Source: a virus (Duplodnaviria > Heunggongvirae > Uroviricota > Caudoviricetes). From it: a stretch of 64,000 nt of DNA. The notes beneath the pieces were generated by a model. It made no database searches and had not been told where the DNA came from. It worked only from the letters and a program-made list of their open reading frames with translations. This document shows positions 1-27,169 of this stretch, in pieces; the first letter of the stretch is position 1; each line of letters begins with the position of its first letter. The translations under genes and the position numbers were made by a program. The stretch covers positions 298,295 to 362,294 of IMG/VR virus record IMGVR_UViG_3300003310_000099. One strand, given 5' to 3'.

Positions 1-116
1 ATGGCGGCTGGAATCCCTACGACGATATGATTAAAGGGCAATGGGTACTCGTCGCACGACAATTCACCGCAACCATCCGTAAGAAAGCAGAAAACCTTAG
101 CTGTACCGAGTAAACC

Positions 117-324
117 ATGAAGACTAAAGAACACTACGAGTTTGGCGAATGCCCTGATTGCGGCGAAGATATCCCCCGATAATGCCGTAAGTGGCGAAGA
201 ATGCCATAACTGCGGCCATGTCTGGAATACCGTCTGCGATGATTGTGGCACTGAATTCAAATCCTTTATGAAAGAAACAAACTCAACCCTGGAGGAAGTT
301 TATGGCTGTCCGAAATGTTCTTAA
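117..324 (+). pseudogene. Multi-CxxC zinc-ribbon protein, frameshifted at a C5 tract
   Basis: Leaderless ATG at 117 gives MKTKEHYEFGECPDCGEDIP; the CHNC/CDDC/CPKC part continues in another frame after 173-177. Confidence 0.6.
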
Positions 325-826
325 TAAACTGCGTTGGTGGCTCTTTCATGCAAAACACCCCAATTATGCCCATGAACACTCTGTCTTTAACACCAATGGC
401 ATGAAAGATTTCCAGAAACTACTCGACAAAATTACCTTCCCTGGCTACACTTTCGAGCTAGGTGAACAAAATGGTAATATGTTCGTCCGTGTTAAATACA
501 ATGAACCCGATGTATTCACAGGCGTCAACGAAACTCAGTACGGACGGAAATGGTGGCTTGAACCCGAAAATGATGAAATGCAATTCATCCAAACCTGTTT
601 CAAAGCCCTACTAACGTCCCTCGAACATCGCGCCAGAGAAAATTTCAAGTACGATGGGCTGCCCATTAACTTCCCCCACCGTACCCTCAAAGAAGCCTGC
701 GAACAGGCTAAACGGGAAAAGTCAACCGTAAATATGCCCCCAATCGAATTCACCTTCAAAGATGAATTCAAACAACATCTGAGGGCACAGTTTAATAAGG
801 CAGTATATGAAACAAAAAATCCTTAA
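302..826 (+). CDS. hypothetical phage protein
   Basis: 174-aa ORF in a tightly packed + strand run. Confidence 0.7.
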   Translation: MAVRNVLNKLRWWLFHAKHPNYAHEHSVFNTNGMKDFQKLLDKITFPGYTFELGEQNGNMFVRVKYNEPDVFTGVNETQYGRKWWLEPENDEMQFIQTCFKALLTSLEHRARENFKYDGLPINFPHRTLKEACEQAKREKSTVNMPPIEFTFKDEFKQHLRAQFNKAVYETKNP

Positions 827-1058
827 TCTAGTCACCTTAGACCAATCGCTCCGCTCCAAAGTTGACTCCTGGGACGCCGAAGATGGGGAGCTAATTGACT
901 TAAATAAGGAAATTGGCCTGTCACGCTCCCTAAGTGTCCCATATTACCAAACTCCAATGCACGCCATTGGTGACGGGTGGCGGCTTATCGCCCCTCCCGT
1001 CTTTATCAAAAATTACATAAACGATATCAACGCCTATGAATGGTGGTTTGAAAAATGA
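807..1058 (+). CDS. hypothetical protein
   Basis: ORF overlapping upstream stop. Confidence 0.6.
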   Translation: MKQKILNLVTLDQSLRSKVDSWDAEDGELIDLNKEIGLSRSLSVPYYQTPMHAIGDGWRLIAPPVFIKNYINDINAYEWWFEK

Positions 1059-1220
1059 AAAATTATCACTACCATTGGCTCCATATCCCTACAGGGAAAT
1101 CAGGCACAAGCACAGTCGCTAATATCGACCGCCTAACATTCCTCGAATACCTCAATCGCTGGAACCAAAGCGGGTCCGATTGGAAGTATTGGGAGATACC
1201 TTAGCTGTACCAAGGATATC

Positions 1221-1397
1221 ATGTTCAAAATCCTAAAACGTACCGTCAAAAACAACACATTGGGCAATTGGTTCCCTATCTGGTCCTCCACTGATGGACA
1301 AGATACCGCCAATTACCTCAAACAATGCGTCGAAGCTCAACCCGATGCCCATTTCAAAATGGTGTTTGAATGTTTACCAACGAACAAGCCCAAGTAA
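1221..1397 (+). CDS. hypothetical protein (leaderless)
   Basis: ATG 21 nt after motif at 1200. Confidence 0.55.
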   Translation: MFKILKRTVKNNTLGNWFPIWSSTDGQDTANYLKQCVEAQPDAHFKMVFECLPTNKPK

Positions 1398-1690
1398 TCG
1401 CTGAATCAATCTACCAGTCTTGGAAATGGGGCGATACCTCCCTTGAACCTAATGACTGGTTCATGGTAAAAATGCCCCAGGATGTTCAAGACCTTTGCCA
1501 CGAAAGACTTGACAATGAAGTACACAAAATCACTGAATGAGGCTCTGCAAAATGCCCATCTTGAAGCTCTGTGTTTGAAAGCATGTGCCCTTACGTTGGA
1601 AGATGCCGATAGCCATAACCTTTTTCGGGAAATAGCAGATAAAATCAAACAGTGCAGAGAATTACTCAATAAACACGAATGGAAAACTAT

Positions 1691-1894
1691 ATGAAAGTCC
1701 ATGCAGATGATCTGTTCGCCGCCCTTGTAACCGCCATCGGCTACCAAACCGATAATGAAGTTAATTCCCAAAAACAACAAGGGCCGTTCCGTAAATCCCA
1801 ATTTCTCAAGAATTTAGAGAAAATGCTGGATGCCGTCAAACGTGGCGAACAACTACAACTGGTCTACCCCGATGACCTCAATGAATTAGGATAA
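1691..1894 (+). CDS. hypothetical protein
   Basis: ORF track, packed operon. Confidence 0.55.
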   Translation: MKVHADDLFAALVTAIGYQTDNEVNSQKQQGPFRKSQFLKNLEKMLDAVKRGEQLQLVYPDDLNELG

Positions 1895-1897
1895 ACT

Positions 1898-2254
1898 ATG
1901 AAACCAAACCAACTTAAATGGGACATGAACGACCCAACTACTGACCCAATGACCTATCTGCTCGATGCAGCAAATAGAAAACAAATGATCCAGGTAGATG
2001 CCTCTACTTTAGTCAAGTATCTTACCAAGGCTAAAGAGATTGCAGACAAAGCTACCAATATCGGCGGCGATCAAGCTGCACGCTTGAACTATCTCATGGA
2101 GGATGTTGTCAACTCCATTCCCCAAATGTTTCGCGTTATGGCCGATCCCCCCGATTACCTCGTTGGCATCGGCCCCGATCATGAATTCACCGTCACCGCA
2201 AGAACTCTGTCCAAAGAACGCGCAAAACAGATTGCGAACCTACTCAATGGCTAA
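1898..2254 (+). CDS. hypothetical protein
   Basis: 118-aa ORF with AGGA RBS. Confidence 0.65.
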   Translation: MKPNQLKWDMNDPTTDPMTYLLDAANRKQMIQVDASTLVKYLTKAKEIADKATNIGGDQAARLNYLMEDVVNSIPQMFRVMADPPDYLVGIGPDHEFTVTARTLSKERAKQIANLLNG

Positions 2255-4260: not shown

Positions 4261-4637
4261 TTAATTTAGCTTAGCTGTACCGAGTGGGTTGAGGCTCGAC
4301 GGAAATCTAACTGGAGGAAGCAGATGCGGGATATGGAGGGGAAGAGTTACGCTGACAGGGTTTACGCTACTGGTACGGCACAGAAGAGGAAGCGTGAGGC
4401 GGCAGACAAGGTGAGGGTGCGGCGTACCAGTAGGCGGAAGGCGAAAAATAAGCTTAGCTGTACCTAGTCGGTTGCGGTTTGACGCCGCAAGGTGGTGTCC
4501 CGTAACGTTTTGGGTCTTGGGGGCGGTTTATTCTGGACTAGAAAAACTGAAACTAGATTTACAAAACGTAGAATTGGGCTAGAATAAAGCTTAGCTGTAC
4601 TGAGTCGAGTGGGTCGAGAACACAACTTTTCAGGAGA

Positions 4638-5627
4638 ATGACAATGGTTGCAGCACTGGAACTGAACGCCAACGGGACCGCGAACATGGCTTATGTTGGT
4701 GAGACGCCGTGGCATCGTTTGGGTACGGTGGTGGATGAGGCGGCGGCGTATGACGCTGAGGGTTTCATCAAGGCGGCTGGTTTGGATTGGGAAGCGGAAA
4801 AGGTGCGGTTGCAGACGTGCGACACTCAGGAAGCGGTGGACGCCTATATGGTTCGTCGGACTTCGGACAAGAAGAAGTTGGCGGATTCGGTGGGCGCACG
4901 GTACACGATTCTTCAGAATCGGGATGCGTTCAAGTGGTTCCAACCGTGGCTGGACGAAAAGGCGGCTGCGTTGCACACTGCGGGCGCTCTGTTCGAGGGT
5001 AGTCGCATCTGGATTTTGGCCAAGTTGAACCGTGATCCGATGGAGATTGCGGCGGGCGACATTGTTGAGAAGTATGTGCTTCTCAGTCATTCGCACGACG
5101 GTACGTTGGCGATTCGGTGCGGTTTCACGCCGATTCGGGTGGTTTGTTGGAATACGTTGAGCATGGCTCATTCCAACGATGCGTCGAAGCTGATTCGGGT
5201 GAAGCACAGTAAGAACGTCATCACGAATTTGGAAAACATTCGTGAGACGATGAACTTGGTGAATGCCGAGTTCGAGGCGACTGCGGAGCAGTATCGCATG
5301 TTGGCTTCCAAGTCGATCAATCAGGCCGACTTGAAGAAGTACATCAAGAAGGTTTTCTCCCTGGACGGGGTTGAAGACAAGGACATTAGCACGCGGTCCA
5401 AGAACATCATGGATGAGGTGATCGGGCTTTGTGAGGCGGGCAAGGGCAACAATCTGCCCTCCGTTCGCGGAACCTACTGGTCCGCGTACAATGGCGTAAC
5501 TGAATACCTCAGTTACGTTTCGGGCCGCAACGAGTCCAACCGAATGGATTCGCTGTGGTTCGGGAAGGCGAACGGCACGAATGCCGACGCCTTGGCCTAC
5601 GCCGTGGAAATGGCGATGGCGGTTTAA
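4638..5627 (+). CDS. DUF932 family phage/plasmid protein (TIGR03299-like)
   Basis: MAYVGETPWHRLG, SHDG, TPIRVVCWNTL and GTYWSAYNGVTEY motifs. Confidence 0.9.
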   Translation: MTMVAALELNANGTANMAYVGETPWHRLGTVVDEAAAYDAEGFIKAAGLDWEAEKVRLQTCDTQEAVDAYMVRRTSDKKKLADSVGARYTILQNRDAFKWFQPWLDEKAAALHTAGALFEGSRIWILAKLNRDPMEIAAGDIVEKYVLLSHSHDGTLAIRCGFTPIRVVCWNTLSMAHSNDASKLIRVKHSKNVITNLENIRETMNLVNAEFEATAEQYRMLASKSINQADLKKYIKKVFSLDGVEDKDISTRSKNIMDEVIGLCEAGKGNNLPSVRGTYWSAYNGVTEYLSYVSGRNESNRMDSLWFGKANGTNADALAYAVEMAMAV

Positions 5628-6605: not shown

Positions 6606-6821
6606 ATGGAAAATCCAGTTTATCATGCGTGTCGGGTTGCGTTCAACTGCGGTACGGATGGGGTGCCGTGGCACATGGTATGTCACGCACTGAGGCAGGG
6701 TTTAGGATTGAAGTCTGCAATGACCTATACTCTTACTGAGAAGGACTTTGCAGCATATCCTGATTTACGGGAACTGGTGGATAGATTGGGCCAGACAGGT
6801 TTCGACAGCGACCCTAAGTGA
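6606..6821 (+). CDS. hypothetical protein, 3' end overlaps the tmRNA-like gene
   Basis: ATG just after upstream stop. Confidence 0.45.
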   Translation: MENPVYHACRVAFNCGTDGVPWHMVCHALRQGLGLKSAMTYTLTEKDFAAYPDLRELVDRLGQTGFDSDPK

Positions 6822-6924
6822 CAGGCTTGACCGTGGTAGGTCAGACGCGAAAAGATGCCTCAATTCAAGTAGCGTAGTTTGTCAGCAAGTCGTCTGGAAT
6901 CGGGTTCAAATCCCGACTGGTCCA
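6788..6924 (+). ncRNA. ssrA: Minimal tmRNA (137 nt), predicted tag (A)ASIQVA*
   Basis: 5' GGGCCAG-ACAGGTTTCGAC; acceptor GGGCCAG/CTGGTCC-A with G3.U70; T-arm TCGGG-TTCAAAT-CCCGA; helix 2 TGACAGGCT/AGTTTGTCA; resume context AAGAT-GCC. Confidence 0.8.
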
Positions 6925-7031
6925 CTTAAAGCTTAGCTGTACCAAGTGGTTTGTGTCGGGGAGGTGACTAAGGAAGTTTGCCAGTAACTCTCCAGTACCG
7001 ACATTAAATAAATTCACGGAAACTGGTATGC

Positions 7032-7116
7032 GGACACTGTTCCATACGTCCAGCTGTAACCTGGATGCCATTAAGATGTATGGTGGTGGCGGTGGGTTCG
7101 ATTCCTACAGTGTCCA
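7032..7116 (+). tRNA. tRNA-Tyr(GTA)-like RNA lacking a D-arm
   Basis: Acceptor GGACACT/AGTGTCC-A, anticodon arm TCCAG-CTGTAAC-CTGGA, T-arm GTGGG-TTCGATT-CCTAC; only 10 nt where the D-arm should be. Confidence 0.7.
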
Positions 7117-7143
7117 TTAAATCTTAGCTGTACCAAGGAGTTT

Positions 7144-7359: not shown

Positions 7360-7586
7360 CAATGCAACAGTTTCGGGTTGAATTGGTGGTGACGGTGAAC
7401 ACTCTTGATACGGTGAGTGAGGCGGAAGTGCAGAGGCACTTGGAGGGCTACCTGGAAGATTTCGACATTGGGAATGCTGAGGTTCAGGAGTGTAAGGAAA
7501 TCTAAACCTTAGCTGTACCAAGTCAGTTGTGAGCTAAGCATGACGTGCTAAACATGCCGAGTACCGCCGCGTTAGTGCGGGCATTT

Positions 7587-7658
7587 GCCGCATTCGACTT
7601 CTAGTGAGGTCATCTGGCTTTCACCCAGAGTAGACGGGAGCGTAACCCGTATGCGGCA
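7587..7658 (+). tRNA. tRNA-Glu(TTC) with non-canonical T-loop
   Basis: Acceptor GCCGCAT/ATGCGGC-A, D-stem GACT/GGTC, anticodon arm TCTGG-CTTTCAC-CCAGA, T-arm ACGGG-AGCGTAA-CCCGT; no encoded CCA. Confidence 0.8.
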
Positions 7659-7714
7659 CTAAACCTTAGCTGTACCGAGTGAATTGTTACTTTTCTCTTT
7701 CTAAGGAGTTTGGA

Positions 7715-8158: not shown

Positions 8159-8249
8159 GAAACAGGGAATCGCCCTCCCTGCTGGAAAGCTTAGCTGTAC
8201 TGAGTTAGTTGTGTCACTTACTTTTCTCTTTTTGAAAGGGTTTCGAGCA

Positions 8250-8558
8250 ATGGTCAAGAACGAACTGGTGCATGTTTGCGGCAACGAGACTTCCGAGGGT
8301 TTCAAGGTGCTTCCGCTGGTGGTTCGCAAGCCGCGTAAGGCCAAGGTGGTGAAGGCCAAGGGCAAGGCGGGTCGTCCGCGAGTGTACAACGGTACGCAAC
8401 GTCGCATCGTGGCGGCGGCGCTGAAGAAGCACGGTCTGACCAAGGGCTTGGAGTTCTTGGCCAAGGAACGCAAGCTCAAGGTGTCGATGACCTTGGCGAT
8501 TGCGGTTGCCAAGGAACACAAGATCGAGTTTCAGCGGGGCCGTCCCAAGGCCGCGTAA
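8250..8558 (+). CDS. basic protein with AT-hook-like GRPR/RGRPK motifs; putative DNA-binding
   Basis: Lys/Arg-rich, ends PKAA, followed by hairpin. Confidence 0.7.
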   Translation: MVKNELVHVCGNETSEGFKVLPLVVRKPRKAKVVKAKGKAGRPRVYNGTQRRIVAAALKKHGLTKGLEFLAKERKLKVSMTLAIAVAKEHKIEFQRGRPKAA

Positions 8559-8623
8559 GGGCTACAAGGGGGGACTGCAACCCCCTTGCCTGCGAGATTT
8601 CTAAATTCTAATTGGGGATTGCC

Positions 8624-8785
8624 ATGAACCGTGAACGCATGATTGACACGATTTGCCTTGACCTGGAGGGTTGGCTTGAGCGTGATCGTCAAGAGTTCCT
8701 GAATCATGTGGAGGAACTGGAGCGGGCTTATCTGAAAACGAAGTCCGACAAGGAACTGACGGAGATTTACGAGGCAAGCGTATAG
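8624..8785 (+). CDS. hypothetical protein
   Basis: 53-aa ORF with GGGG RBS ending at next motif. Confidence 0.55.
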   Translation: MNRERMIDTICLDLEGWLERDRQEFLNHVEELERAYLKTKSDKELTEIYEASV

Positions 8786-8837
8786 CTTAGCTGTACCGAG
8801 TGTGATGTAAGATTTCTTTTTCTCAAAGGGGATTTGA

Positions 8838-9080
8838 ATGGCTCGTCAGGAAACGACTGCTGGTTTCGAGGTTCTGCCGTTGCCGACGTATCGCACTTCT
8901 GCCAAGGAGTTTGCGGAGAAGGCCAAGGTCGATTATGCCGTGGCTCAGGGTTTCATCAAGTTCCTGGTCAGTCAGGGCATTGCGAAGGAAGTGGAGAAGC
9001 GTAAGGTTGTCGGTGCCAAGGGCAAGCCGACGAATGTGTATGAATTGCCGACTGAACTGCGGCTCAAGTTGGCGGCGTAA
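8838..9080 (+). CDS. winged-helix-like DNA-binding protein
   Basis: helix + LVSQGIAKEV + GKPTNVYEL wing; ends KLAA. Confidence 0.7.
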   Translation: MARQETTAGFEVLPLPTYRTSAKEFAEKAKVDYAVAQGFIKFLVSQGIAKEVEKRKVVGAKGKPTNVYELPTELRLKLAA

Positions 9081-9116
9081 GCCAAACAGGGGGGAACAAA
9101 CTGTTCCCCCCTTGAG

Positions 9117-9200
9117 GGCCGCGTGGTGGAATTGGCATACACAAGGGACTTAAAATCCCTCGCCTTTATCGGCTTATGGGTTCGAGTCCCATCGCGGCTA
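9117..9200 (+). tRNA. tRNA-Leu(TAA)
   Basis: Canonical cloverleaf: GTGGAATTGGCATACAC D-arm, AGGGA-CTTAAAA-TCCCT, long variable arm, GGTTCGAGTCC; no encoded CCA. Confidence 0.95.
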
Positions 9201-9239
9201 TTGCTTAGCTGTACTGAGTTCTTAAACGGAGGAATTTCG

Positions 9240-9428
9240 ATGTACGTTCTGAATGGGTGGAATCGGCGTGATGGTGAACTGGAGCAGAATTTCACCAAGA
9301 ATGAGGGTGAGACTGCTTTGGCGATTGCCCGAATTTGGCTGAGTAAGGGTTGGCGTCCTGTCTTGAAGTCTTACGTTGGCGGGATTCATCTCGTTCCTCT
9401 TTCTGTTCCGCTGCGTAAGGCTGCGTAG
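9240..9428 (+). CDS. hypothetical protein
   Basis: GGAGG RBS; ends RKAA. Confidence 0.65.
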   Translation: MYVLNGWNRRDGELEQNFTKNEGETALAIARIWLSKGWRPVLKSYVGGIHLVPLSVPLRKAA

Positions 9429-9483
9429 TGCCAGGGTAATCGCCCACCCTGCATAACCTTAGCTGTACCAAGGAGAGCATGAC

Positions 9484-9678
9484 ATGGAACCGCTGCCGAT
9501 TGGGACTGAGTATGATGGCAACGTAATTGTCGAAGTGGTCGATATGGACCCTTCTGACACTTATCAACCTTTCAGCTATCTCTTGGACAATGGTGAGATT
9601 GTTTGGATTCCTCAAGGGGAGGAACCGCAGTATATTATCACCGAACAAGGCAGGAATGTATTGCGTGCCAATCTGTAA
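9484..9678 (+). CDS. hypothetical protein
   Basis: ORF between two motif copies. Confidence 0.6.
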   Translation: MEPLPIGTEYDGNVIVEVVDMDPSDTYQPFSYLLDNGEIVWIPQGEEPQYIITEQGRNVLRANL

Positions 9679-9837
9679 CCTTAGCTGTACCAAGGAGCTT
9701 GTGATGTGGTGGAAAGTTTTCGCTGACGGCTCCGAGTACGACATTGTTTTCGCCGCAAGTGCCGAAGCAGCGATTGCTTACGCCAAGTGGAAGCATGGGG
9801 AAGCTGTTTGGACTGCACGTCTCTATTAGGAGCAGCA

Positions 9838-10071: not shown

Positions 10072-10207
10072 CTGTACCTAGTTCATTGCCCAATCATTCA
10101 GGAGTCAGTCATGGGTAATCCTGTTGTGACGCCAATGGACATTGCGTGGAACGGTGAAATCATGGAAGATGTTTACGGGTCGATGGAAGAGTATTGGGAG
10201 GAACAAG

Positions 10208-10408: not shown

Positions 10409-10424
10409 CTGTACCAAGGTGGAT

Positions 10425-12844: not shown

Positions 12845-12850
12845 ATCATG

Positions 12851-17230: not shown

Positions 17231-17529
17231 GCTGAACGGGCAAAAGGATTGGACGCGAGAACAAAAGGAACAGGTCAAGCGGTTTCTCAAACAGTATCCG
17301 CAAGGAGCGCAAGATGAACGACAGCAACGAAAAGCTGGATGATCTTTGGATTGACATTGGCGGCGAAGGCTAAATCTTAGCTGTACCAAGTAGAATGTAA
17401 CTCAAGTGAACCTTAATGAAAGGAAGCTATATTGCGTATAGTTTAGCCCAGAAGTAGCTCATTAGTTGGAAGTGGGACTAATGAGTGTGGGGCCTTACCA
17501 CTACTAGCTTTCTCTTACCTGGAGCAACC

Positions 17530-17706
17530 ATGTTGAAGATTTACACTCAGGACCACGGTTACAGTGGCATGATTGTTGCAGTCGCCAAGAATGAGGCGGA
17601 TGCAAGGAAGATCATGAAAGCTGCCGCCAACTACTATGAACATACGCCAGTTGAGGAACATGAAATCAAGGAAGGTTTCATGGAATACAATATGGGTGAC
17701 GGCTAA
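17530..17706 (+). CDS. hypothetical protein
   Basis: GGAG RBS; VAVAKNEADARKI. Confidence 0.6.
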   Translation: MLKIYTQDHGYSGMIVAVAKNEADARKIMKAAANYYEHTPVEEHEIKEGFMEYNMGDG

Positions 17707-17751
17707 ACCTTAGCTGTACCTAGTTAATTGTAACCTAACTGGAGCCAACAC

Positions 17752-17955
17752 ATGGCGAAGCTGACGAATGCGGAACGGGAACAGTGGATCAACAACGATG
17801 AGGGTCTGTATGACTGGAAACGGTCGTCAAGGCTCTCAATGCGGGAGTTCATCAAGCAGAACAAGGAAGAGATTGACCAGTGCATCAACAACGTGCTGGG
17901 CAACAAACAGCCTGCCCATTACCTCAAGTATGGGCGCTACCCTACATGGCGGTAG
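17752..17955 (+). CDS. hypothetical phage protein
   Basis: WINNDEGLYDW motif; GGAG RBS. Confidence 0.7.
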   Translation: MAKLTNAEREQWINNDEGLYDWKRSSRLSMREFIKQNKEEIDQCINNVLGNKQPAHYLKYGRYPTWR

Positions 17956-18203
17956 CATCAATCCCAACGCTTGGAGTTCATCCCGTGGAAAACGAATTCG
18001 ATCTTTACATCATCATGGCACACGCTGAACATTTGCGGCGTCAGTTGCTGAACAACGAAAAGCCCGATGCGTGGCGTATCAAGCGGCTGAGTGAATTGGC
18101 TCAAAACATCGAACGCGAGTACGATGAGCAATACCAAAAGTGGTGCGATGAGCAAGAGCTTAGCTGTACCGAGTGAGTTGTGATAACTCAAGCGGAGAGT
18201 ACC

Positions 18204-18428
18204 ATGAAGCTGGACCCGACTGGTTGCATCGACACGAACAACGGCAAGGGTTACTTTCAGGTCCGCGACAATTGGGAAGGCAACGGCTATCGCCTCTACT
18301 TCGGGGGCGATAGGTATGTCTCTCAGGTGGACGGTGAAATCAATGGCAAGGTTTACCGTACCATTAAGGCGGCAAAAGCTGATTGCTTCCGTCGCTTCAA
18401 GCTAGAAGCGAAGCGTGTCTATGACTGA
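18204..18428 (+). CDS. hypothetical protein
   Basis: GGAG RBS. Confidence 0.6.
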   Translation: MKLDPTGCIDTNNGKGYFQVRDNWEGNGYRLYFGGDRYVSQVDGEINGKVYRTIKAAKADCFRRFKLEAKRVYD

Positions 18429-18667
18429 TGCCTTCAAGTCTATAGATAAACTCTGTAGACTTTATGGCACTAACTTCTACATTCAAGTTTCCGAGTGTTC
18501 CATTGGCATCTACAACGTGCCAGATGATGACTTCCATATCTTCACTTGGAGCGAAAATCGCTATGTTCTGACCAACATACAAGACTATATCCCCAATTGG
18601 CTATCCAACAAAGTGGGGATATAGCCTAGCTGTACCAAGTCCATTGTAATTCAAATCACTTTGGAGA

Positions 18668-18925
18668 ATGGTCATGACTGACAGCGTTGCCAAGATTGCC
18701 CGTGTCAACCCGACCTTGGCCAACAAGATCAACGCACAATTCACCTTCCTCACCAATGAGGACATTGCCGAAGTCGAGAAAATCGACCGCATGATGATGG
18801 TGCTGGTGCGTTGCGGCAATGGCCGATTCGTCTGCCCCGTTCAGAACGCACTACACTTCTGCAACATCATCGACAAGGAAGGCACCGACTACGTTCGGGA
18901 TATGAGCTTCCCAAGTAATGGGTAG
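18668..18925 (+). CDS. hypothetical protein
   Basis: GGAG RBS. Confidence 0.65.
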   Translation: MVMTDSVAKIARVNPTLANKINAQFTFLTNEDIAEVEKIDRMMMVLVRCGNGRFVCPVQNALHFCNIIDKEGTDYVRDMSFPSNG

Positions 18926-18996
18926 AACAGGGTTCGCCCACCCTGCTTAAACCTTAGCTGTACTGAGTGTAATGTAACTCATTCAGGAGGACTTCA

Positions 18997-19212
18997 ATGG
19001 CTCAGTGCTGCGGCGAAGAAATGTACAAGGACTGCAACGGCCAACCGCGTTGTGAACAGTGCCAACCGCCGTGTCCGTGTTGCTATGATGGCGGCATGGA
19101 TGACCAAGAGGAAGAAGAAGAATTTTGGCTGACGTGTCTGGATGAGATGGATGCACGATACCGTAAAGGAACGAAAAATGGAAACTCCGCTCCAGAAGCT
19201 GCCATTCGATGA
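18997..19212 (+). CDS. Cys-rich acidic small protein
   Basis: AGGAGG RBS. Confidence 0.6.
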   Translation: MAQCCGEEMYKDCNGQPRCEQCQPPCPCCYDGGMDDQEEEEEFWLTCLDEMDARYRKGTKNGNSAPEAAIR

Positions 19213-19398
19213 AGCCCTGTACCAGACATTCAATTTCGTTAGCAAAATGTCTGAGTCAATGGATGCTACGTTTACTGATGATGAACGGGCAGCTGTCAAG
19301 ATCACTTCACGCATACTCGCCCAAATGGTTGTGGAAATGCACGACGATACCTTAGCTGTACCTAGTAAGTTGTAACCCAACCCCAAACGGAGAGTGCC

Positions 19399-19530
19399 AT
19401 GTACGAAGTCATCCACAAGGGTCGCAGCTTGTTCCGCAACGTCAGCATCGAGCGTTGCCGTCAGTTCATCGCACGGCACAATCTCAGTGGGGCTATCATT
19501 CAGCCCCTCAGTCAAATGTTGGCTGCTTAA
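19399..19530 (+). CDS. 43-aa protein ending QMLAA
   Basis: GGAG RBS; not in ORF track (<60 aa). Confidence 0.6.
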   Translation: MYEVIHKGRSLFRNVSIERCRQFIARHNLSGAIIQPLSQMLAA

Positions 19531-19576
19531 CTCCAGGGTTCGCCCCCCCTGCGCCACATCTATTAAGGAGCCAAAC

Positions 19577-19759
19577 ATGTATGAGGGTGAAGCCGATTAC
19601 GTTCCCTACTTCTGGGAACGCAAGACACCAGTGCAGACCGTTGGCAAGGTGCGTATCTACCTTGTCCAAGACGAAGCTGCACAATTCGATGATCTGATGG
19701 GACGAAGCCAACTCAACTTGGCCGAATGTTCCAACGGCAAGGTCATGGAAATAGCTTAG
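19577..19759 (+). CDS. hypothetical protein
   Basis: AAGGAG RBS. Confidence 0.6.
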   Translation: MYEGEADYVPYFWERKTPVQTVGKVRIYLVQDEAAQFDDLMGRSQLNLAECSNGKVMEIA

Positions 19760-19799
19760 CTGTACCTAGTTAATTGTAACCTTACTCTGGAGCAAACAC

Positions 19800-19991
19800 A
19801 TGCAGGTACATCTTTACGGCAAGCCTCTGGTTGAGGGGAAGACTGTGACGCTGGACCATACGGTTCAGAAGTTCGAGATTCTGATTCGCTCCATGAGTGG
19901 GGTTCATGCACAACGCTTGAAAGACCTCATTCAGAAGCAGTTTGAGGTCGTCAAGATCAAGGAAGTGGACAGCATTTCTTACGTCATCTAA
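19800..19991 (+). CDS. hypothetical protein
   Basis: GGAG RBS. Confidence 0.6.
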   Translation: MQVHLYGKPLVEGKTVTLDHTVQKFEILIRSMSGVHAQRLKDLIQKQFEVVKIKEVDSISYVI

Positions 19992-20260
19992 GGGGCAGGG
20001 TCGCCCACCCTGCTTAAACCTTACGGAGTCCTACCATGAAGATCATTGCTGCCTACAACAAGTACACCAAGGAAGCCTTGACCAACGAACAGCGGGAAGC
20101 TGACATGGAGGCACTACTTGAGGCACATGAAGAAGAAGTGAAAACCAACCCCACATGGAAGTATTTCGGGGGGCATCATCGAGCTAGGCGACCACGAATA
20201 CCAAGTGTGCTAAACCTTAGCTGTACTGAGTACAGTGTAACCCCAACACTTGGAGCAAAC

Positions 20261-20626
20261 ATGGACAAGCATTTGCAAGAGCGTATCGACCGTTTCGTGC
20301 AGGCCGCTGATCGGTGCGTGGAAACCTACTGGACGAACAGTGGCTACACCCACATGTCACCGCCCAAACATCGCGCCAACGAGATTAGCGACAAATGGGT
20401 GCGAGTTGTGACGGTCGAAGAACGCAATGGCGTTTGGCAGGATTCGAGCGTCTACGCCTTCATCTGCCTCAAGGACTATTCGACCAAGGCTTTAGGTCAA
20501 CTCAAGAAGGGCGACATTCACAAACCAGCGACCTACAAGGCCGCTGCGAAGCACGCAAGGGGCAACGTGTTCGACAACGATTTTGAGAAGTGCCTGACGC
20601 CGTGGGGTATCGTCTACTTGAAGTAA
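20261..20626 (+). CDS. conserved hypothetical phage protein
   Basis: SVYAFI...GDIHKPATYKAAAKHARGNV motif. Confidence 0.75.
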   Translation: MDKHLQERIDRFVQAADRCVETYWTNSGYTHMSPPKHRANEISDKWVRVVTVEERNGVWQDSSVYAFICLKDYSTKALGQLKKGDIHKPATYKAAAKHARGNVFDNDFEKCLTPWGIVYLK

Positions 20627-20675
20627 GGGGCAGGGTCGCCCACCCTGCTTAAACCTTAGCTGTACCGAGTAGAGT

Positions 20676-20954
20676 ATGAACAAACAAGAATACGCTGAGT
20701 ATGAGGCACGGGTAGCCGAGTTCTTCAGCCACGGTTTGGCTAACTTGTCAACCAAGTCGGATTGCCATGAACCGTTCTTTTCGTGGCGTCCGTGTCAGTG
20801 CTGCGGGACACACTTAGGCGGCAATCGCTATGAGTGTGACGGGTACAATGAGAAGACAAAGGAAGTCGAAGAGTACGACAACATTTGCGAAGACTGCGTA
20901 TATTACGCAGAATACGGGCAGCTTGACGATACCACTATGGCCAATCTGGAGTAA
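20676..20954 (+). CDS. Cys-containing hypothetical protein (leaderless)
   Basis: FSWRPCQCCG...GNRY; ATG at motif+21. Confidence 0.7.
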   Translation: MNKQEYAEYEARVAEFFSHGLANLSTKSDCHEPFFSWRPCQCCGTHLGGNRYECDGYNEKTKEVEEYDNICEDCVYYAEYGQLDDTTMANLE

Positions 20955-21360
20955 CCATGAAACTCAGCGAAGCTATCCACAAGCTGCAATATACGCTCAA
21001 TCTCCACGGCGATAAGGAAATGAAACAGTGGAAGTATAGCGACGGCAAGGTACAGTCTGTGCCCGTCAAGCTGGAAGTAGCCGAAAACCCCGAAGATGAT
21101 ACCATCGGCGTCATCCTCAGTGCCGAATAACCTTAGCTGTACCGAGTAAAGCATGAACACATCACTTGAAAAGAAGATCAATCATAAGCGGCGTTTGCGT
21201 GTGCTGCGTGAGAGACTTCGCAAGCTGCTGCTCCAATACTACGTTCATTCGGACGCGGGCAAGCTGGAGAAGCATGTTCGTGTGATGAACAAGCTCCGCA
21301 AGGCAATCAGAAAGCTTAGCTGTACCAAGTAGGTTGTAATCACCCTTACTGGAGTCAGCC

Positions 21361-21618
21361 ATGCAAGACCACGTTCTCGACAACTGCCTCATTCATCAGA
21401 AAGATGCCATTATCGACCTCATCGACAGTGGCAAGCACGATGAGGCGATAACGCTGCTCAAGTTCGTCAAGGAACTGTGGGAAGCCGCGAGCTACGACTA
21501 CAAGTACAGAGAACTCAAGGAGCGCGGCGTCAGAGCGGCGGATAACCGAGAGAACTGCCGCCACTGGAAGCACGTCCAGTCACTCACGGCCATTCAGAAC
21601 AAGTATCGTTCACTGTAA
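21361..21618 (+). CDS. hypothetical protein
   Basis: GGAG RBS. Confidence 0.65.
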   Translation: MQDHVLDNCLIHQKDAIIDLIDSGKHDEAITLLKFVKELWEAASYDYKYRELKERGVRAADNRENCRHWKHVQSLTAIQNKYRSL

Positions 21619-21706
21619 GGGGTGGATAGGGGAGAAAGCCAATCCCCTTATCCTGCTGATACCTTAGCTGTACCTAGTGCAGTATAACCCTTACTGGAGA
21701 AGACAC

Positions 21707-21883
21707 ATGAAGGTTTGCCAGAAGTGCGGGGATGAGATTGGCACCAAGGACGGGGACAACTATTGTGGCAAGTGCCACAAGAAGAAGGATGCGGCCAAGA
21801 GACGGAAGGAACGGGAAGACGTGTTGCGTAGTTGTGGGTTGGTGAAGGTGCGTGGGGCAATGGGTGGAACCTATTGGGAATAA
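21707..21883 (+). CDS. small zinc-finger protein
   Basis: CQKC...CGKC; ends VRGAMGGTYWE. Confidence 0.65.
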   Translation: MKVCQKCGDEIGTKDGDNYCGKCHKKKDAAKRRKEREDVLRSCGLVKVRGAMGGTYWE

Positions 21884-21960
21884 CCCAATAGGTCGCCCAA
21901 CCCAGCATAGCTTAGCTGTACCAAGTGCATTGTGACAGTCAAACCCCTGGAGTCAGTGCA

Positions 21961-22317
21961 ATGCGGTATTTCATCAAGTTGGCCAAGAAGAACGACCGTG
22001 GCGAACCCGTCAACACGGGTTGGTATGAAGAGGTGGATGAGTACACGTTCAAGAACGCCAAGTATGCGCTCAACGATTGCGGCGATGGTCCGCGTTACAC
22101 GAACGACGCTGTGATGGTGGACGGCGATGAGGTCACTGCACGGTTGGTCGCAGCCCCAATACGGGACTTGGCCATTCTGACGCGATACTTTCAGGCGTCG
22201 GAACCGAACAAGGTGGAAGGCGGTTTCGTCCGCGAGCAACCGAGTATCAAGTTCAACATTCGCGGCAAGATCAAGCTGCGTGAGAAGGACGGTAGCATCT
22301 GGAGCAAAGCAGCGTAA
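21961..22317 (+). CDS. hypothetical protein
   Basis: GGAG RBS; ends SKAA. Confidence 0.7.
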   Translation: MRYFIKLAKKNDRGEPVNTGWYEEVDEYTFKNAKYALNDCGDGPRYTNDAVMVDGDEVTARLVAAPIRDLAILTRYFQASEPNKVEGGFVREQPSIKFNIRGKIKLREKDGSIWSKAA

Positions 22318-22366
22318 ACCAACAGGGTCGCCCACCCTGCTTTACCTTAGCTGTACGGAGTGGAGT

Positions 22367-22543
22367 ATGAGCTACCTTCGTCACATGCGGACTACTGCTG
22401 AATGCCGCGCTGAAAGCGGGGCCGAAGAACAAGGCGTCAAGGTGCGTGCGAAGCGTAATCGCCGCAATATCCCCAACGCTTGGGACGACGTGCCTCATGC
22501 CCGTCGCCACAAGTGCGACCGCCACAAGGATCATCGTCGCTAA
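22367..22543 (+). CDS. small basic protein (leaderless)
   Basis: IPNAWDD motif; ATG at motif+21. Confidence 0.65.
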   Translation: MSYLRHMRTTAECRAESGAEEQGVKVRAKRNRRNIPNAWDDVPHARRHKCDRHKDHRR

Positions 22544-22970
22544 CGGGCGGGTGTACGGTCTGGCGGCGGGGGCCGTCAGCGTAAGGTAGGCAAACCTACA
22601 CCGTACACCTGCCCAAAAGTACAAAGCTTAGCTGTACCTAGTATAGTGTAATCACCCTTACTGGAGACAGCCATGCACGCTACCACCGAACGCAAGAAGT
22701 CCAACAAGAACGATTTCACCGTCACCACGACGGTCAAGGATCGCGCCATTCACATCCAGACCATCATTATGATGGCAGCAAGGTCCAACCGCGAACCCGA
22801 TAAGCGCCGCAAGCTGCGGGAACGCGACGACCGCCGCATGAGGGACTGATGAGCGAACAAGAAATTGCCGACTGGCTCGCAGAACTACGCGAGTCAGTCG
22901 GCACCAGACCCCAAGGATAGCTTAGCTGTACCAAGTAGGTTGTAACCAACACCCTTACTGGAGAGTACAC

Positions 22971-23354
22971 ATGACCGCTACCGTGTCCCTCAGCTGCGAA
23001 CGCTACTTCCCCGAAACCAACAAGCGGGGCAAGAATGGCAAGCTGCAACGCATTTGCATCGACGTGCGCAAGATGCAGATTCGCGGCGACTTCATCACCA
23101 CGACGGGCTTTGAGGTCAACTACCTCAAGCGGGGCGGCGAATTCCGCTTCTACGTCAAGAGCATCGTCAAGCCTGTCAAGTCGATATGGCAGGAATTGAA
23201 CACCCGTCCGCAACCCATTATCCCGAAGTGGGAGCGGGAAGGCAACTACAGTCGGGATGAATTCGTGGCGTGGCTCAAGGCACGCCGTATCCAAAACGCC
23301 GAAAGCCTTGTCATCGCTCTGATGACGATGCCCCCCGAAAACTTGGCAGCGTAG
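22971..23354 (+). CDS. hypothetical protein
   Basis: GGAG RBS; ends NLAA. Confidence 0.7.
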   Translation: MTATVSLSCERYFPETNKRGKNGKLQRICIDVRKMQIRGDFITTTGFEVNYLKRGGEFRFYVKSIVKPVKSIWQELNTRPQPIIPKWEREGNYSRDEFVAWLKARRIQNAESLVIALMTMPPENLAA

Positions 23355-23615
23355 CCAACAGGGTCGCCCACCCTGCATAGCCCATAGCTTAGCTGTACCA
23401 AGTAGAGTGTAACCAACACTCAGGAGTCAGCACATGCGGGCCAAACATCGTAACGACCACAATCATGGCAAGAGCGGTTGGGTCGGTGGCAATCCACGTT
23501 ATGGCCGTAAACGTGGCTTCCGCAAGTCCGATCAACCCAAAGACAAAGCCGCCTGGAAACGCGAAGTCAAGTAAGGGGTGAGACAGGGGACTGCCAACCC
23601 TGTCTTTTTTCGTTT

Positions 23616-23856
23616 CAACCTAAACTCAGTACAGCTAAGCTTTTACACCTCCATACTGTACAAAGTGCTTCACCTCTCAAATGCGATTAAATGCGTTTTA
23701 AGCCACTCTGAGGTCAAGGTGACTCTCGACCCACTTAACCCATTTGAATCGCTTCTAGGGCCATCCTAGCGTCAGCAAATGGCATCCGCGAATCCAATCC
23801 CGAATGTTCAAAGACCGCACCGAATCCTACCCTAATTAAGCTTAGCTGTACCGAGT
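23616..23856. repeat. ~240-bp non-coding element, copy 1, bounded by outward-facing motif copies
   Basis: Shares long blocks with 25945..26186. Confidence 0.85.
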
Positions 23857-24980: not shown

Positions 24981-25346
24981 ATGGGCGTCCGTCTCTACCC
25001 GAACACGACCAACGCGGCGAAGCTGGAGAAGTTGGCTGGTGTCCCCGAAGGGACGCACAAGCGGATGGAAGACATGGCAAAGCGGCACGCGGAGGAACGC
25101 GCTGCGGCCACCAACTGGAACGAGTACGAAGACGGCTACCGCCAATGGAAGGAACGGGACAACGACGGTCCTATTGGCGACTTGGACGCCTTCCTTACCT
25201 TCGGGTGGGGCAAGTTCCGCCCAATCGACGGCATCGGGGAGGATTACGCGGGCAACGAGAGCGACCCACAACGGGCCGCGAAGCTGCTCCGATACAACGG
25301 TATCGGGGTGGACGTGAGCCTAACGGAAGGCGTCCACTGGTGCTAG
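24981..25346 (+). CDS. hypothetical protein
   Basis: GGAG RBS, followed by terminator. Confidence 0.7.
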   Translation: MGVRLYPNTTNAAKLEKLAGVPEGTHKRMEDMAKRHAEERAAATNWNEYEDGYRQWKERDNDGPIGDLDAFLTFGWGKFRPIDGIGEDYAGNESDPQRAAKLLRYNGIGVDVSLTEGVHWC

Positions 25347-25665
25347 TGGACAGGGGGCGAAAGCCCCCTTTTCTTTTATACAACCATTACCTTAGCTGTA
25401 CCTAGTGGAGTGTCCCCCCTTCACTACTGGAGCCGCACGATGACGCTGAAACAGCAGCTGGAAAAGTTCGATGCGCAGGCCGACACCTACGCCAAGGCCA
25501 CGAAGGAGCCTTGGGAGTGCGAGAGCTACGCTGAATGGGTGGCTTCGCTGCCCGAAGAAGAACAACCTTATGAAAATGAGTAACACGGGCATCGCCCGCC
25601 CTAATTAGGATAGCTTAGCTGTACCTAGTAAGTTGTTCCAACCAACCCCATACGGAGACACGCAC

Positions 25666-25911
25666 ATGGCCACCGTCATCGCTTCCAACCTCACCGCCGT
25701 TGTCGTCTACCGCGTCGAGAAGACGCTGGGGCCGAATGGCCGCGTCAAGCAGCTGACCGACGTGACGATCAAGGCGGGGCCGCTCACGGTCGCCACCAAG
25801 ACGCTCTGGGGCCGCTACAGTCAGAGCAAGGCTCTGGTGGAGTTCAAGCGGAACCCCAAGGGCTGGACGGTGCTGGATGCCGCCGCGTCCAAGTTGCCGA
25901 TTGCGGCCTAA
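25666..25911 (+). CDS. hypothetical protein
   Basis: GGAG RBS; ends PIAA; terminator 25914-25940. Confidence 0.7.
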   Translation: MATVIASNLTAVVVYRVEKTLGPNGRVKQLTDVTIKAGPLTVATKTLWGRYSQSKALVEFKRNPKGWTVLDAAASKLPIAA

Positions 25912-25944
25912 CGAGAAGGGGGCTTCGGCCCCCTTTTTTTATTC

Positions 25945-26186
25945 CAACCTAAACTCGGTACAGCTAAGTTTTATGTAAAGATTACTGTACATAAGTGCTT
26001 CATGGCTAGAATGCGATTAAATGCGTTTTAAGCCACTCTAAGGTCAAGGTGACTCTCGACCCATTTGAGCAATCTAAACGCCTTCTAGGGCCATCCTAGT
26101 GTCAGCAAATGGCATTCGCAAAGGCAAACCCAAGAGGCAAACCGACTGGCCCAATCCTACCCTAATTAAGCTTAGCTGTACCTAGT
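25945..26186. repeat. ~240-bp non-coding element, copy 2
   Basis: Shared blocks AATGCGATTAAATGCGTTTTAAGCCACTCT, AGGTCAAGGTGACTCTCGACCCA, CTTCTAGGGCCATCCTAG, AATCCTACCCTAATTAAGCTTAGC. Confidence 0.85.
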
Positions 26187-26224
26187 AAGTTGTAAGATTC
26201 ACCCCCCTTACTGGAGAGACGGCC

Positions 26225-26548
26225 ATGCACACCAAGGAAAGCATTGCGGCGCTGTTGGCCACGAACGACAAGGCCGTGTATCGCGCTCTGGTGGTGCTGT
26301 TCGAGCGGCAGACCGCCGACGAACGCGACTCGGAGCAGACGAATCACCTCAACGGGATGGGCTTCAACGGGCGGGACGCCAAGTTCGGCACCTCGTTGGC
26401 CAAACAGGTCATCCGTTGGCAGGACGGGTTGACCAACTACCGAACGCCGTTGACGATGGCGCAGACGAGCGCCGCACGCAAGATGCTCCGCAAGTACGCG
26501 GGACAGTTGGCCAAAGTCGCCAACGAGAAGGCCGCAGTCGGGGTCTAA
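26225..26548 (+). CDS. conserved hypothetical phage protein
   Basis: RQTADE...NGMGFNGRDA...KYAGQL. Confidence 0.8.
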   Translation: MHTKESIAALLATNDKAVYRALVVLFERQTADERDSEQTNHLNGMGFNGRDAKFGTSLAKQVIRWQDGLTNYRTPLTMAQTSAARKMLRKYAGQLAKVANEKAAVGV

Positions 26549-26837
26549 GGGGAAGGGGGCTTCGGCCCCTTTTTCCTTTTATAAGGATTAGCTTAGCTGT
26601 ACCTAGTACAGTGTAACGACGACTGGTCTTCATCATATAGTGGCCCTTCCCTCACCCTGTTCTGGAGTCGGCAATGAAGTACGTCTATGGTGACTTGGTG
26701 CTGAGTGCGGTGCATGGCTGCTACGTCCGTGTCAAGGAACAACAGGGCTGCTACTTGGTTGTCATGGATCGCAATACGCTGGTCGAGTTGCCCGACCACA
26801 TCCACATATCGCAAGCCACGTTCGCCAAGTAGCATGA

Positions 26838-26876
26838 GATTAGCACTAAGCTATTAGGTATAGCTTAGTGCTAATC
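26838..26876. repeat. Perfect 17-bp inverted repeat at end of cassette region
   Basis: GATTAGCACTAAGCTAT-TAGGT-ATAGCTTAGTGCTAATC. Confidence 0.9.
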
Positions 26877-27169
26877 ATATTGAATAGCTTAGCTGTACCA
26901 AGTAAGGTGTAACATAATTAAGAATGGAGAAATTAATTTCAAAAAAGTTTGAAAAAAAGAAAATAAAAAGGAGGGGGCTACCCGCCATACGAGCCTTCTT
27001 ATACATGAAGACAAGAAAAAATTCCACAGGTAGGTTTTCAAATTTCAAATTATAGAAAAAAATTCCCAATTTCGTGTTTCAAAAATTGGGAATTTCAAAA
27101 TTTTCATTTTCCGTTATTAGCTCAAAACTTTACCAAAATCCGATTTCCAAAAATAGCATTGCTGGATTT

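Follow-up and report, generated by a model that had tools for sequence, protein, structure and literature searches.

A Repeated 20-Nucleotide Block in an Uncultured Huge Phage Is Probably a Phage-Specific Promoter for Leaderless and Leadered mRNAs

Introduction

What is the function of a 16-bp motif that recurs about every 400 bp through 27 kb of phage DNA, mostly just in front of a small gene? The motif, CTTAGCTGTACYNAGK, fills the first part of a 64,000-nucleotide stretch of a Caudoviricetes phage, bases 298295-362294 of the 373,404-bp IMG/VR record IMGVR_UViG_3300003310_000099 (hereafter G000). We refer to this whole stretch as the window. To our knowledge, nothing is known experimentally about the organisation of transcription in uncultured huge phages. 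A preliminary description of the window had proposed that the motif marks transcription starts. We followed the motif through the record and into related phages, and we conclude that it is probably a phage-specific promoter, presumably read by a phage sigma factor, which would serve both leaderless and leadered mRNAs in a hyperplastic gene array.

Copies of the motif and their orientation

There are 59 exact matches of CTTAGCTGTACYNAGK in the window (57 on the plus and two on the minus strand), all within 96-26903, against a chance expectation of zero in dinucleotide-preserving shuffles. Three near copies, at 5689 with two mismatches and at 18625 and 22346 with one mismatch each, raise the window total to 62, in line with the 60 or so copies first reported. 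The median spacing between copies in the array is 398 bp.

96-26903, + strand: array of 60 copies of the 16-mer from the motif scan (each from start to start + 15)
Copy starts, + strand, part 1: 96, 1200, 2422, 4270, 4453, 4590, 5689 (near copy), 5944, 6325, 6932, 7123, 7508
Copy starts, + strand, part 2: 7665, 8190, 8786, 9204, 9458, 9680, 10067, 10404, 10814, 11753, 12201, 12659
Copy starts, + strand, part 3: 12991, 13322, 13593, 14085, 14425, 14649, 15032, 15580, 16732, 16972, 17376, 17709, 18159, 18625 (near copy)
Copy starts, + strand, part 4: 18953, 19351, 19755, 20216, 20655, 21132, 21315, 21663, 21911
Copy starts, + strand, part 5: 22346 (near copy), 22627, 22921, 23388, 23841, 24133, 24683, 24929, 25391, 25614, 26171, 26592, 26888

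Across the 373-kb record, the core CTTAGCTGTAC occurs 110 times on the plus strand and twice on the minus strand, with few copies from 32 to 240 kb and an ever denser series from there to 325 kb. As many as 110 of the 112 copies point the same way as the downstream genes. A protein identical to one sigma protein of G000 is found on a 596,617-bp contig, and the record is probably part of a genome of about 600 kb; the motif counts are therefore lower bounds. The preliminary description placed the motif before nearly every open reading frame (ORF) or RNA gene. This holds for ORFs from 4.2 to 27 kb, but only three copies serve about ten ORFs at 1-4.2 kb, and among the RNA genes neither a tmRNA (transfer-messenger RNA, 6788-6927) nor a tRNA-Leu (9117-9200) is directly preceded by a copy.

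The motif appears to be private to a small group of phages. Elsewhere in IMG/VR, the exact motif was found on 62 contigs with one copy each, which is the chance level, and a scan of metagenomes gave mostly chance singletons, apart from a few short contigs (Ga0315273, Ga0315277, Ga0315286) that represent a third relative with the same form of the motif. Literature searches on the motif string and on the related phage LR756511 (see below) returned nothing relevant. No second repeated promoter emerged from a search of G000, where all other frequent k-mers are internal repeats of a 1,877-residue ORF rather than dispersed signals.

A fixed distance between the motif and gene starts

We count offsets from the first C of the 16-mer as 0, which makes offset 21 the predicted +1. 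An alignment of the 110 copies revealed a conserved block of 20 nucleotides, from offset -4 to +15, in which WWAS precedes the 16-mer and upstream of which nothing is conserved. The block holds about 33 bits, 22 of which are fixed by the selection of the copies itself. The motif had been described as spanning -21 to -6; its 3' edge at -6 stands, whereas the 5' edge of the block lies at -25. On the 3' side, four loosely constrained, A/G-rich bases lead to a pyrimidine at offset 20, a purine at 21 and a T at 22.

An ATG begins exactly at offset 21 in 27 of the 110 copies in G000, compared with zero to five at each neighbouring offset, and 25 of these 27 ATGs open at least 51 codons, as against 26% of random ATGs. 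All nine window copies listed with an ATG at this offset were confirmed, and a tenth, at 9458, opens 15 codons only. In a second class, TGT occupies offsets 20-22 (44 of the 110 copies), often as TGTAAC or TGTAAT (21 copies), as had been noted. The leader that follows often reads GTAAC...CTTACTGGAG, is 15-45 nucleotides long and carries GGAG before the ATG; leaders ending in CTTACTGGAG are frequent between 12 and 26 kb of the window. The leaderless class has CAT or TAT at offsets 20-22, the leadered class TGT. Since these offsets are constrained in both, the position itself matters, not the ATG alone.

The 60 plus-strand copies of the window comprise 46 leadered units with a Shine-Dalgarno sequence, eight leaderless units with an ORF of at least 40 codons and six others, which include units with tRNA-like ends and no ORF, a unit with the ATG at offset 22, and the last copy. 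In the leadered units, the Shine-Dalgarno sequence is of the GGAG type and the ATG mostly lies at offsets 43-54. The motif itself often ends the preceding gene: as first observed, the TAG of its CTTAG closes the upstream frame in 10 of the 60 copies (19 of 110 in the record), and in 14 more of the 60 the upstream stop codon lies in WWAS or in the four to six bases just 5' of the motif.

The same distance separates the motif from an RNA gene. A tRNA-Met begins at offset 21 of the copy at 124467 of G000, in a divergent intergenic region, 95 nucleotides past a minus-strand gene that is evidently real, having a 67% homolog in a related phage. Two further G000 tRNAs start at offsets 23 and 26 of motif copies.

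The absence of a good ribosome-binding site, claimed for the class with the ATG at offset 21, needs a caveat. GAG at offsets 12-14 is found in 18 of these 27 copies and in 32 of the 83 others (p 0.014), and in a relative, introduced below as G001, in 5 of 21 and in none of 61, respectively (p 0.0007). Nevertheless, GAG is missing from 9 of the 27 copies in G000 and from 16 of the 21 in G001, and its spacing to the ATG is too exact for a Shine-Dalgarno sequence alone, as offset 21 is used and offsets 20, 22 and 23 almost never.

Taken as a whole, this geometry makes it highly probable that the motif is a promoter from which transcription begins at offset 21 ± 1, and the pyrimidine-purine start for leaderless and leadered transcripts that the preliminary description proposed is supported, as a prediction from sequence, by the same arrangement in two relatives.

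Relatives keep the geometry and change the letters

We reached the relatives through the gene of a CCA-adding enzyme located beside the array (34348-35865, minus strand). The first, IMGVR_UViG_3300036766_002289 (G001, 390 kb), runs collinear with G000, and the two are about 72% identical in nucleotide sequence. Its motif is CTTAGTTGTAC, present at 84 plus-strand and two minus-strand sites and nowhere in G000. The two forms of the motif, CTTAGCTGTACCGAGT and CTTAGTTGTACCAATT, differ at offset 5 (-16): G000 has C in 110 copies and T in none, whereas G001 has T in 84 and only two chance copies of the C form. The 3' part of the motif is also different, AAWW in G001 versus NAGT in G000. The two phages share the WWAS prefix and the Y-R-T at offsets 20-22, and in G001, too, ATGs peak at offset 21 (21 of 67 copies). 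Orthologous genes stand behind each phage's own version of the motif, and G001 keeps the tRNA-Met arrangement, with the tRNA beginning at offset 23. A change in a phage-encoded reader would be expected to cause such a lineage-wide switch between C and T.

In the complete phage LR756511 (595 kb), the CCA-adding enzyme is 78% identical to that of the window. Its first 50 kb contain 88 copies of AGCTGTAC, with the consensus TAAAGCTGTACWWAAW. The LR756511 form, TAAAGCTGTACWWAA, occurs on both strands and tracks gene direction, with 33 minus-strand copies heading minus-strand genes, which argues against strand-specific DNA functions. The ATG lies at offsets 21/22 in 16 of the 88 copies, and offsets 20-21 read T-A. 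A scan of other viruses with this version found singletons only. All three phages have the AGYTGTAC core (-18 to -11) and the same geometry, with flanks that are specific to each lineage. In each of them, the predicted start fits a leaderless mRNA where the ATG stands at this position.

As a separate observation, G004, a more distant complete huge phage (533 kb), has another array signal at 213-230 kb, AAGT-TTCCGAACCT-N14-GGTCTTCC. The TTCCGAACCT-N14-GGTCTTCC pair is present in 27 copies, 25 of them on one strand, before leadered genes, and it is bipartite like a -35/-10 pair of the extracytoplasmic function (ECF) type.

A promoter unlike that of the host, and its candidate readers

The layout of a bacterial sigma70 promoter is not seen in the motif, as had been pointed out. 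Offsets -15 to -5 (about -36 to -26) hold at most 0.12 bit per position, positions -12 to -7 read ACCNAG, and the block contains neither a -35 element nor TAnnnT. The array is also depleted of sigma70-like consensus matches, with nine from 7.4 to 27.3 kb, none reaching 10/12, against 15 ± 4 in shuffles. Near-consensus sigma70 promoters do exist in G000 (36 versus 7-15 in shuffles), mostly at 10-200 kb.

The preliminary description had suggested a phage-encoded or virion-carried RNA polymerase or sigma factor. G000 encodes three sigma-like proteins, of 159, 110 and 275 residues, which favours the sigma branch of this suggestion. The 159-residue and 275-residue proteins contain regions 2 and 4, with FliA and WhiG as the nearest solved relatives of the former and SigA and RpoD of the latter. 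The 110-residue protein (G000 96335-96667, minus strand) matches Sigma70_r2 only and belongs to a family of 244 representatives, all short. Its structural model, with a predicted local distance difference test (pLDDT) score of 93.7, matches only region-2 domains of sigma factors, among them T4 gp55 (Z 9.3, root-mean-square deviation 2.8 Å, 104 of 110 residues aligned). No region-4-only partner was detected, since Pfam Sigma70_r4 matches only the two sigma genes already known to have region 4. The orthologs of the 159-, 110- and 275-residue proteins are 81, 60 and 56% identical in G001, and 49, 51 and 37% in LR756511. A sigma factor with region 2 only would suit a promoter lacking a -35 element, and the presumed DNA-reading helix of the 110-residue protein differs between G000 and G001. 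The 159-residue protein, in turn, has an early-type promoter of its own, and it is present in all three phages with AGYTGTAC and absent from G004. Both the region-2-only protein and the FliA-like one are candidate readers of the motif.

That host core RNA polymerase reads the motif with a phage sigma factor seems rather likely. In the mechanism we propose, the host sigma70 holoenzyme would first read TTGACA-N16/17-TATAAT promoters elsewhere in the genome. One of them, TTGACA-17-TATTAT, lies 105 nucleotides before the gene of the 159-residue sigma, and G001 keeps TTGACT-17-TATACT there; this and the other near-consensus promoters agree with a cascade that begins with host sigma70. The phage sigma would next redirect the host core enzyme and fire at least 110 motif promoters, each made of the WWAS-CTTAGCTGTACYNAGK block at -25 to -6 and the four purine-rich, loose bases. 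Transcription would start at the purine of offset 21 in the context Y(-1) R(+1) T(+2). In about a quarter of the units, this purine would be the A of the start codon, resulting in a leaderless mRNA, and in one case the first base of a tRNA; the remaining units would place their GGAG leader of 15-45 nucleotides before the ATG. The genes under these promoters would be small ORFans, along with tRNA-like RNAs and an RNA-repair set, in units often closed by a conserved hairpin or terminator, whose content and order change between relatives.

Several observations weigh against this proposal, most of them on the identity of the reader, for which the assignment among the sigma factors is ambiguous. 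The match of the 110-residue model to gp55 is tied with those to ShbA and region 2 of sigmaE, and its homologs occur in 12 further huge-phage contigs, in which no enrichment of AGYTGTAC was found. A region-2 domain alone should read less than a contiguous block of 20 nucleotides reaching to -6, and this block mismatches the -35/-10 spacing expected for the two sigma factors with region 4. The DNA-reading helices of the 159-residue protein are nearly identical between G000 and G001 although the motif differs. As for the start, the phage is uncultured and offset 21 is deduced from the DNA; the GAG enrichment suggests that some ATGs at this offset may also be served by a weak Shine-Dalgarno sequence on read-through RNA. 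Finally, with the record probably partial, a polymerase gene could lie in the roughly 220 kb outside the analysed DNA.

The last point leads to the alternative of an unrecognised phage-encoded or virion-carried RNA polymerase acting on its own promoter, instead of host core with a phage sigma. Phages N4 and phiKZ and the crAss-like phages provide precedents for such enzymes, and dedicated phage polymerases, such as those of the T7 family, typically have promoters with a long, near-invariant stretch like the present block of about 33 bits. The units also resemble early host-takeover genes, which would need an enzyme at injection, and G000 has ORFs of 1,070, 1,583 and 1,877 residues without recognisable domains that, like the missing part of the genome, leave room for it. 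Yet a six-frame Pfam search of G000 revealed no T7-like polymerase, Rpb1_2 or Rpb2_6, and neither PF00940 nor PF00562 matched in G001, G004 or the complete LR756511, the PF00940 search having been run without a positive control; Rpb1_2 and Rpb2_6 gave no signal in these three phages either. An hmmscan of most ORFs of at least 700 residues, in which the 700-residue ORF at 60428-62530 was left out, found no polymerase family. Moreover, the block ends at -6 whereas promoters of the T7 type run through +1, and the three conserved sigma genes need promoters to act on. We therefore regard a dedicated polymerase as unlikely, and a virion-carried enzyme is without support.

Two other readings of the fixed geometry

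Instead of a promoter, the motif could be an endoribonuclease site in RNA. Read-through transcripts would be cut five nucleotides past the motif, releasing monocistronic RNAs that begin at offset 21, and the cut would yield the same fixed geometry for ATGs and tRNA 5' ends. The array does encode RNA-handling enzymes. Furthermore, the upstream ORF ends in or against the motif without a terminator in 24 of the 60 window copies, so that read-through RNA containing the motif must exist. We consider processing improbable, however. The motif RNA has no fold of its own (z -0.09 and -0.83), the tRNA-Met copy lies in a divergent region with no co-directional gene upstream, and some copies come right after strong terminators. 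In addition, the array of 20 kb offers no other promoter candidate to make the precursor, and Y(-1) R(+1) is the usual signature of a bacterial start site.

Still less probable is that the 20-nucleotide block is an upstream element and that T-R-T-R-A at offsets 20-24 (TGTAAC, TGTAAT, TGTGAT) acts as a -10-like element, with a start about seven nucleotides further on, near offset 32, and the ATGs at offset 21 translated with the help of GAG on read-through RNA. TGTAAT and TGTGAT resemble TATAAT, and the enrichment of GAG in both phages would be accounted for. What speaks against it, besides the many copies without GAG, is that a Shine-Dalgarno sequence would allow a spacing of 5-9 nucleotides, while the ATG is almost never at offsets 20, 22 or 23. 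The tRNA-Met starts at offset 21, and in LR756511 the ATG peak at 21/22 persists with TAT or TAC at these offsets.

Hairpins, terminators and the turnover of units

The units are closed in part by hairpins and terminators.

8164-23375, + strand: 11 conserved hairpins of the form CAGGGT(T)CGCCCACCCTG (fold -8.1 kcal/mol, z -2.26)
Starts of the CGCCCACCCTG core, + strand: 8171, 9441, 15015, 15559, 16955, 18935, 19541, 20002, 20637, 22329, 23365
25352-25379, + strand: intrinsic terminator AGGGGGCGAAAGCCCCCT with a T run, 12 nucleotides before copy 25391
26549-26585, + strand: intrinsic terminator with a 10-bp stem and a T run, just before copy 26592

Nine of the 11 hairpins sit 6-12 nucleotides before a motif copy, and similar hairpins with a CGCC(C/A)A loop are found in G001 and LR756511. 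Strong terminators lie 12-17 nucleotides 5' of some copies. A hairpin before every copy was considered and rejected, as the 45 nucleotides upstream fold like controls (mean -8.76 versus -8.82 kcal/mol); a clear hairpin is seen in only about a third of the units. One hairpin, at 20002-20045, leads without an intervening motif into CTTAAAC-CTTACGGAG-N7-ATG. This unit looks like one that lost its promoter, perhaps by a deletion between the CTTA of the motif and that of the leader.

We compared the 93 units at 244-325 kb of G000 with G001 and found about half of them without a G001 homolog. Full-length homologs exist for 24 first genes, 18 of which are also located within 130 nucleotides after a G001 motif copy. 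In the dense array, these genes keep little of their order (Spearman 0.63; 6 of 23 neighbour pairs are preserved) compared with the region upstream (0.93). Duplication of cassette genes was searched for and only one weak pair was found. The metagenome contig L348 comes from the third relative, which has the C form of the motif. There, the counterpart of unit 24929 directly adjoins the element before unit 26171, implying that G000 carries two extra units, 25391 and 25614. The breakpoints of this indel lie in two similar terminators; other comparisons are too diverged to place breakpoints. The suggestion that the motif provides homology for cassette shuffling thus holds insofar as the array is hyperplastic and reordered, but the mapped breaks fall in terminators and no recombinase was found.

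The least probable of the alternatives, in which the motif is mainly a site-specific recombination site of the integron attC kind that captures one-gene cassettes and has promoter activity only secondarily, draws on the one-gene units, the missing homologs, the scrambled order and the lack of paralogy among cassette genes, but the motif is asymmetric and does not fold into the imperfect palindrome of attC, the record has no tyrosine recombinase (PF00589, no match), a fixed distance to an ATG or tRNA start has no role in recombination, the only mapped indel breaks outside the motif, and the plasticity is explained by homologous recombination between repeats of regulatory DNA, with no need for a dedicated site.

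Comparison with known systems

The nearest counterparts of the array are the PeSL (promoter-early stem-loop) cassettes of the T4-type phages RB49 and phi1, regulatory cassettes with promoters of host sigma70 consensus (Arbiol et al. 2010, PMC2839356). Both systems have about 50-110 repeated regulatory cassettes in hyperplastic regions, each just before a small ORFan; in the window, 60 copies lie within 27 kb, and most of the genes lack a Pfam match. The cassette holds the stop codon of the preceding gene, frequently with a stem-loop or terminator (here in part of the units), a Shine-Dalgarno sequence and ATG form the 3' end, and gene content and order vary between relatives. The strong host-like promoter is what the present cassettes lack, as they have neither a -35 element nor TATAAT. 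They also differ in having a motif confined to one lineage, a predicted leaderless class that makes up a quarter of the units, and a clear hairpin in only about a third. Our cassettes are known from sequence, with the mapped indel breaks in terminators and not at the promoter.

In phage T4, the 3' edge of the late promoter box is near -6. T4 late promoters (TATAAATA, sigma gp55, PDB 7d7c) resemble the motif in being a single block near the start without a -35 element and with a similar 3' edge, and both phages encode a region-2-only sigma, the 110-residue protein reaching Z 9.3 to gp55. However, the sequences are unrelated, the block has 20 nucleotides here versus eight, and region-2 domains of ECF factors match the fold equally well. 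The genes driven here look accessory or early rather than virion genes, and no dependence on gp33 or the sliding clamp can be deduced.

In phiEco32, the sigma gp36 reads, with gp79, middle and late promoters with AATGTA centred at -11.5, while early genes including the sigma gene use host sigma70 (PMC12276001). A divergent phage sigma that redirects the host core to a short element near -10 is the logic proposed here as well. The differences are the position of TGTAC at -15 to -11, a block three times longer, three sigma genes versus one and no evidence for a gp79-like partner.

Like T7-like promoters, the motif occurs in many near-identical contiguous copies of about 20 nucleotides whose 33 bits exceed what site-finding needs, with specificities diverged between sister phages. 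Unlike them, the block ends at -6 instead of extending to +6, and no T7-like polymerase was detected. Leaderless mRNAs are known from lambda cI and are widespread in Actinobacteria (PMC3898074). In the present units of this class, the start codon likewise coincides with the predicted 5' end of the transcript and leaves no room for a Shine-Dalgarno sequence; what differs is that one type of phage promoter would serve leaderless and leadered classes, with a weak GAG bias six nucleotides before the ATG.

Phage-private promoters, phage sigma cascades, leaderless mRNAs and cassettes of the PeSL type are thus each known singly. As far as literature searches show, their combination has not been described: cassettes without a host-type promoter, a complete switch from C to T between sister phages, and uncultured phages of about 600 kb. 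As a tentative and rather doubtful generalisation, a clade of ~600-kb huge phages may use a private code, in which a small phage sigma, possibly of the gp55-like family with region 2 only that has hundreds of members in huge phages, reads a 20-nucleotide promoter whose letters are rewritten in concert at about 100 sites with each lineage split, as in the C to T change at -16 between G000 and G001. Such a code would insulate the accessory arrays from relatives and host, and the same promoter would produce leaderless mRNAs as well as tRNAs whose 5' ends require no trimming.

As a promoter, the motif provides a testable map of more than 110 transcription units with predicted start sites, including a large class of phage leaderless mRNAs. 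Three sigma genes and a natural C/T switch between sister phages would offer a system for studying the co-evolution of promoters and sigma factors, and mobile regulatory cassettes resembling PeSL would exist outside T4-type phages, on a non-host promoter. For annotation, the motif fixes the start codons of many small ORFans that gene callers would misplace.

Content of the units and neighbouring features

The following units and copies of the array deserve mention.

1200-1223, + strand: leaderless-class copy, ATG at offset 21, 58 codons
5944-5967, + strand: motif copy, ATG at offset 21, 80 codons
10404-10427, + strand: motif copy, ATG at offset 21, 87 codons
15580-16695, + strand: motif copy, ATG at offset 21, 364-residue RNA ligase like T4 Rnl1 (PF09511, E 1.2e-12)
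16732-16944, + strand: motif copy, ATG at offset 21, 63 codons
20655-20954, + strand: motif copy, ATG at offset 21, 92 codons
21132-21332, + strand: motif copy, ATG at offset 21, 59 codons
22346-22543, + strand: near copy CTTAGCTGTACGGAGT, ATG at offset 21, 58 codons
96-324, + strand: motif copy, ATG at offset 21, only 21 codons open
9458-9526, + strand: motif copy, ATG at offset 21, only 15 codons open
11753-12200, + strand: motif copy, ATG at offset 22, 141-residue AAA_33 kinase-like protein (PF13671, E 1.7e-13)
4590-5627, + strand: motif copy, 27-nucleotide leader with GGAG, 329-residue DUF932 gene
6932-7122, + strand: motif-headed unit without an ORF, with a tRNA-like T-arm and acceptor as its 3' end
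7508-7664, + strand: motif-headed unit with a tRNA-like gene (ARAGORN 7566-7659, anticodon unclear)
23624-23639, - strand: reverse motif copy within the ~260-bp repeat 23575-23856, back to back with the forward copy 23841
25953-25968, - strand: reverse motif copy in the second ~260-bp repeat, back to back with the forward copy 26171

Most array genes have no Pfam match. The recognisable ones form an RNA-repair set (DUF932, the AAA_33 kinase and the predicted leaderless Rnl1-like ligase) beside tRNA-like RNAs and the tmRNA. The G001 ortholog of the ligase (74% identity) likewise starts at offset 21 of a G001 motif copy. The tmRNA is short (Rfam RF00023, 49.8 bits versus a gathering score of 47) and ends four nucleotides before copy 6932. 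In the unit at 96-324, a run of five C at 173-177 splits the frame from the ORF 142-324, and the joined reading has the CxxC...CxxC pattern of a zinc ribbon; the run may reflect a frameshift, a mistake in assembly or a slippery site.

The two non-coding repeats of about 260 bp (23575-23856 and 25941-26186) are 81% identical to each other. Each consists of a terminator followed by a reverse and a forward motif copy with about 200 conserved bases between the two, and they were not found in G001 or in the examined parts of LR756511. They may represent pairs of divergent promoters or the gene of a small RNA.

The G+C content of the cassette arrays is 0.50-0.56 (window 4000-26000), compared with 0.39-0.41 in the remaining genome, a rise that recurs in G001 (295-315 kb) and LR756511 (1-20000). 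Length-based gene calling in the G+C-rich array gave spurious minus-strand ORFs, which were not used for orientation statistics.

Elsewhere in the window, a 1,052-residue ORF at 45820-48978 is broken by an intein with a LAGLIDADG endonuclease. The ORF of 1,877 residues, from window position 62559 to 64000 and on to 366486 of G000, is composed of repeats with a period of about 33 nucleotides and matches no family; G004 encodes a similar repeat protein. Outside the window, 58 tRNA or tmRNA genes were called from 27 to 172 kb of G000, one of them a tRNA at 167507 whose anticodon is CUA.

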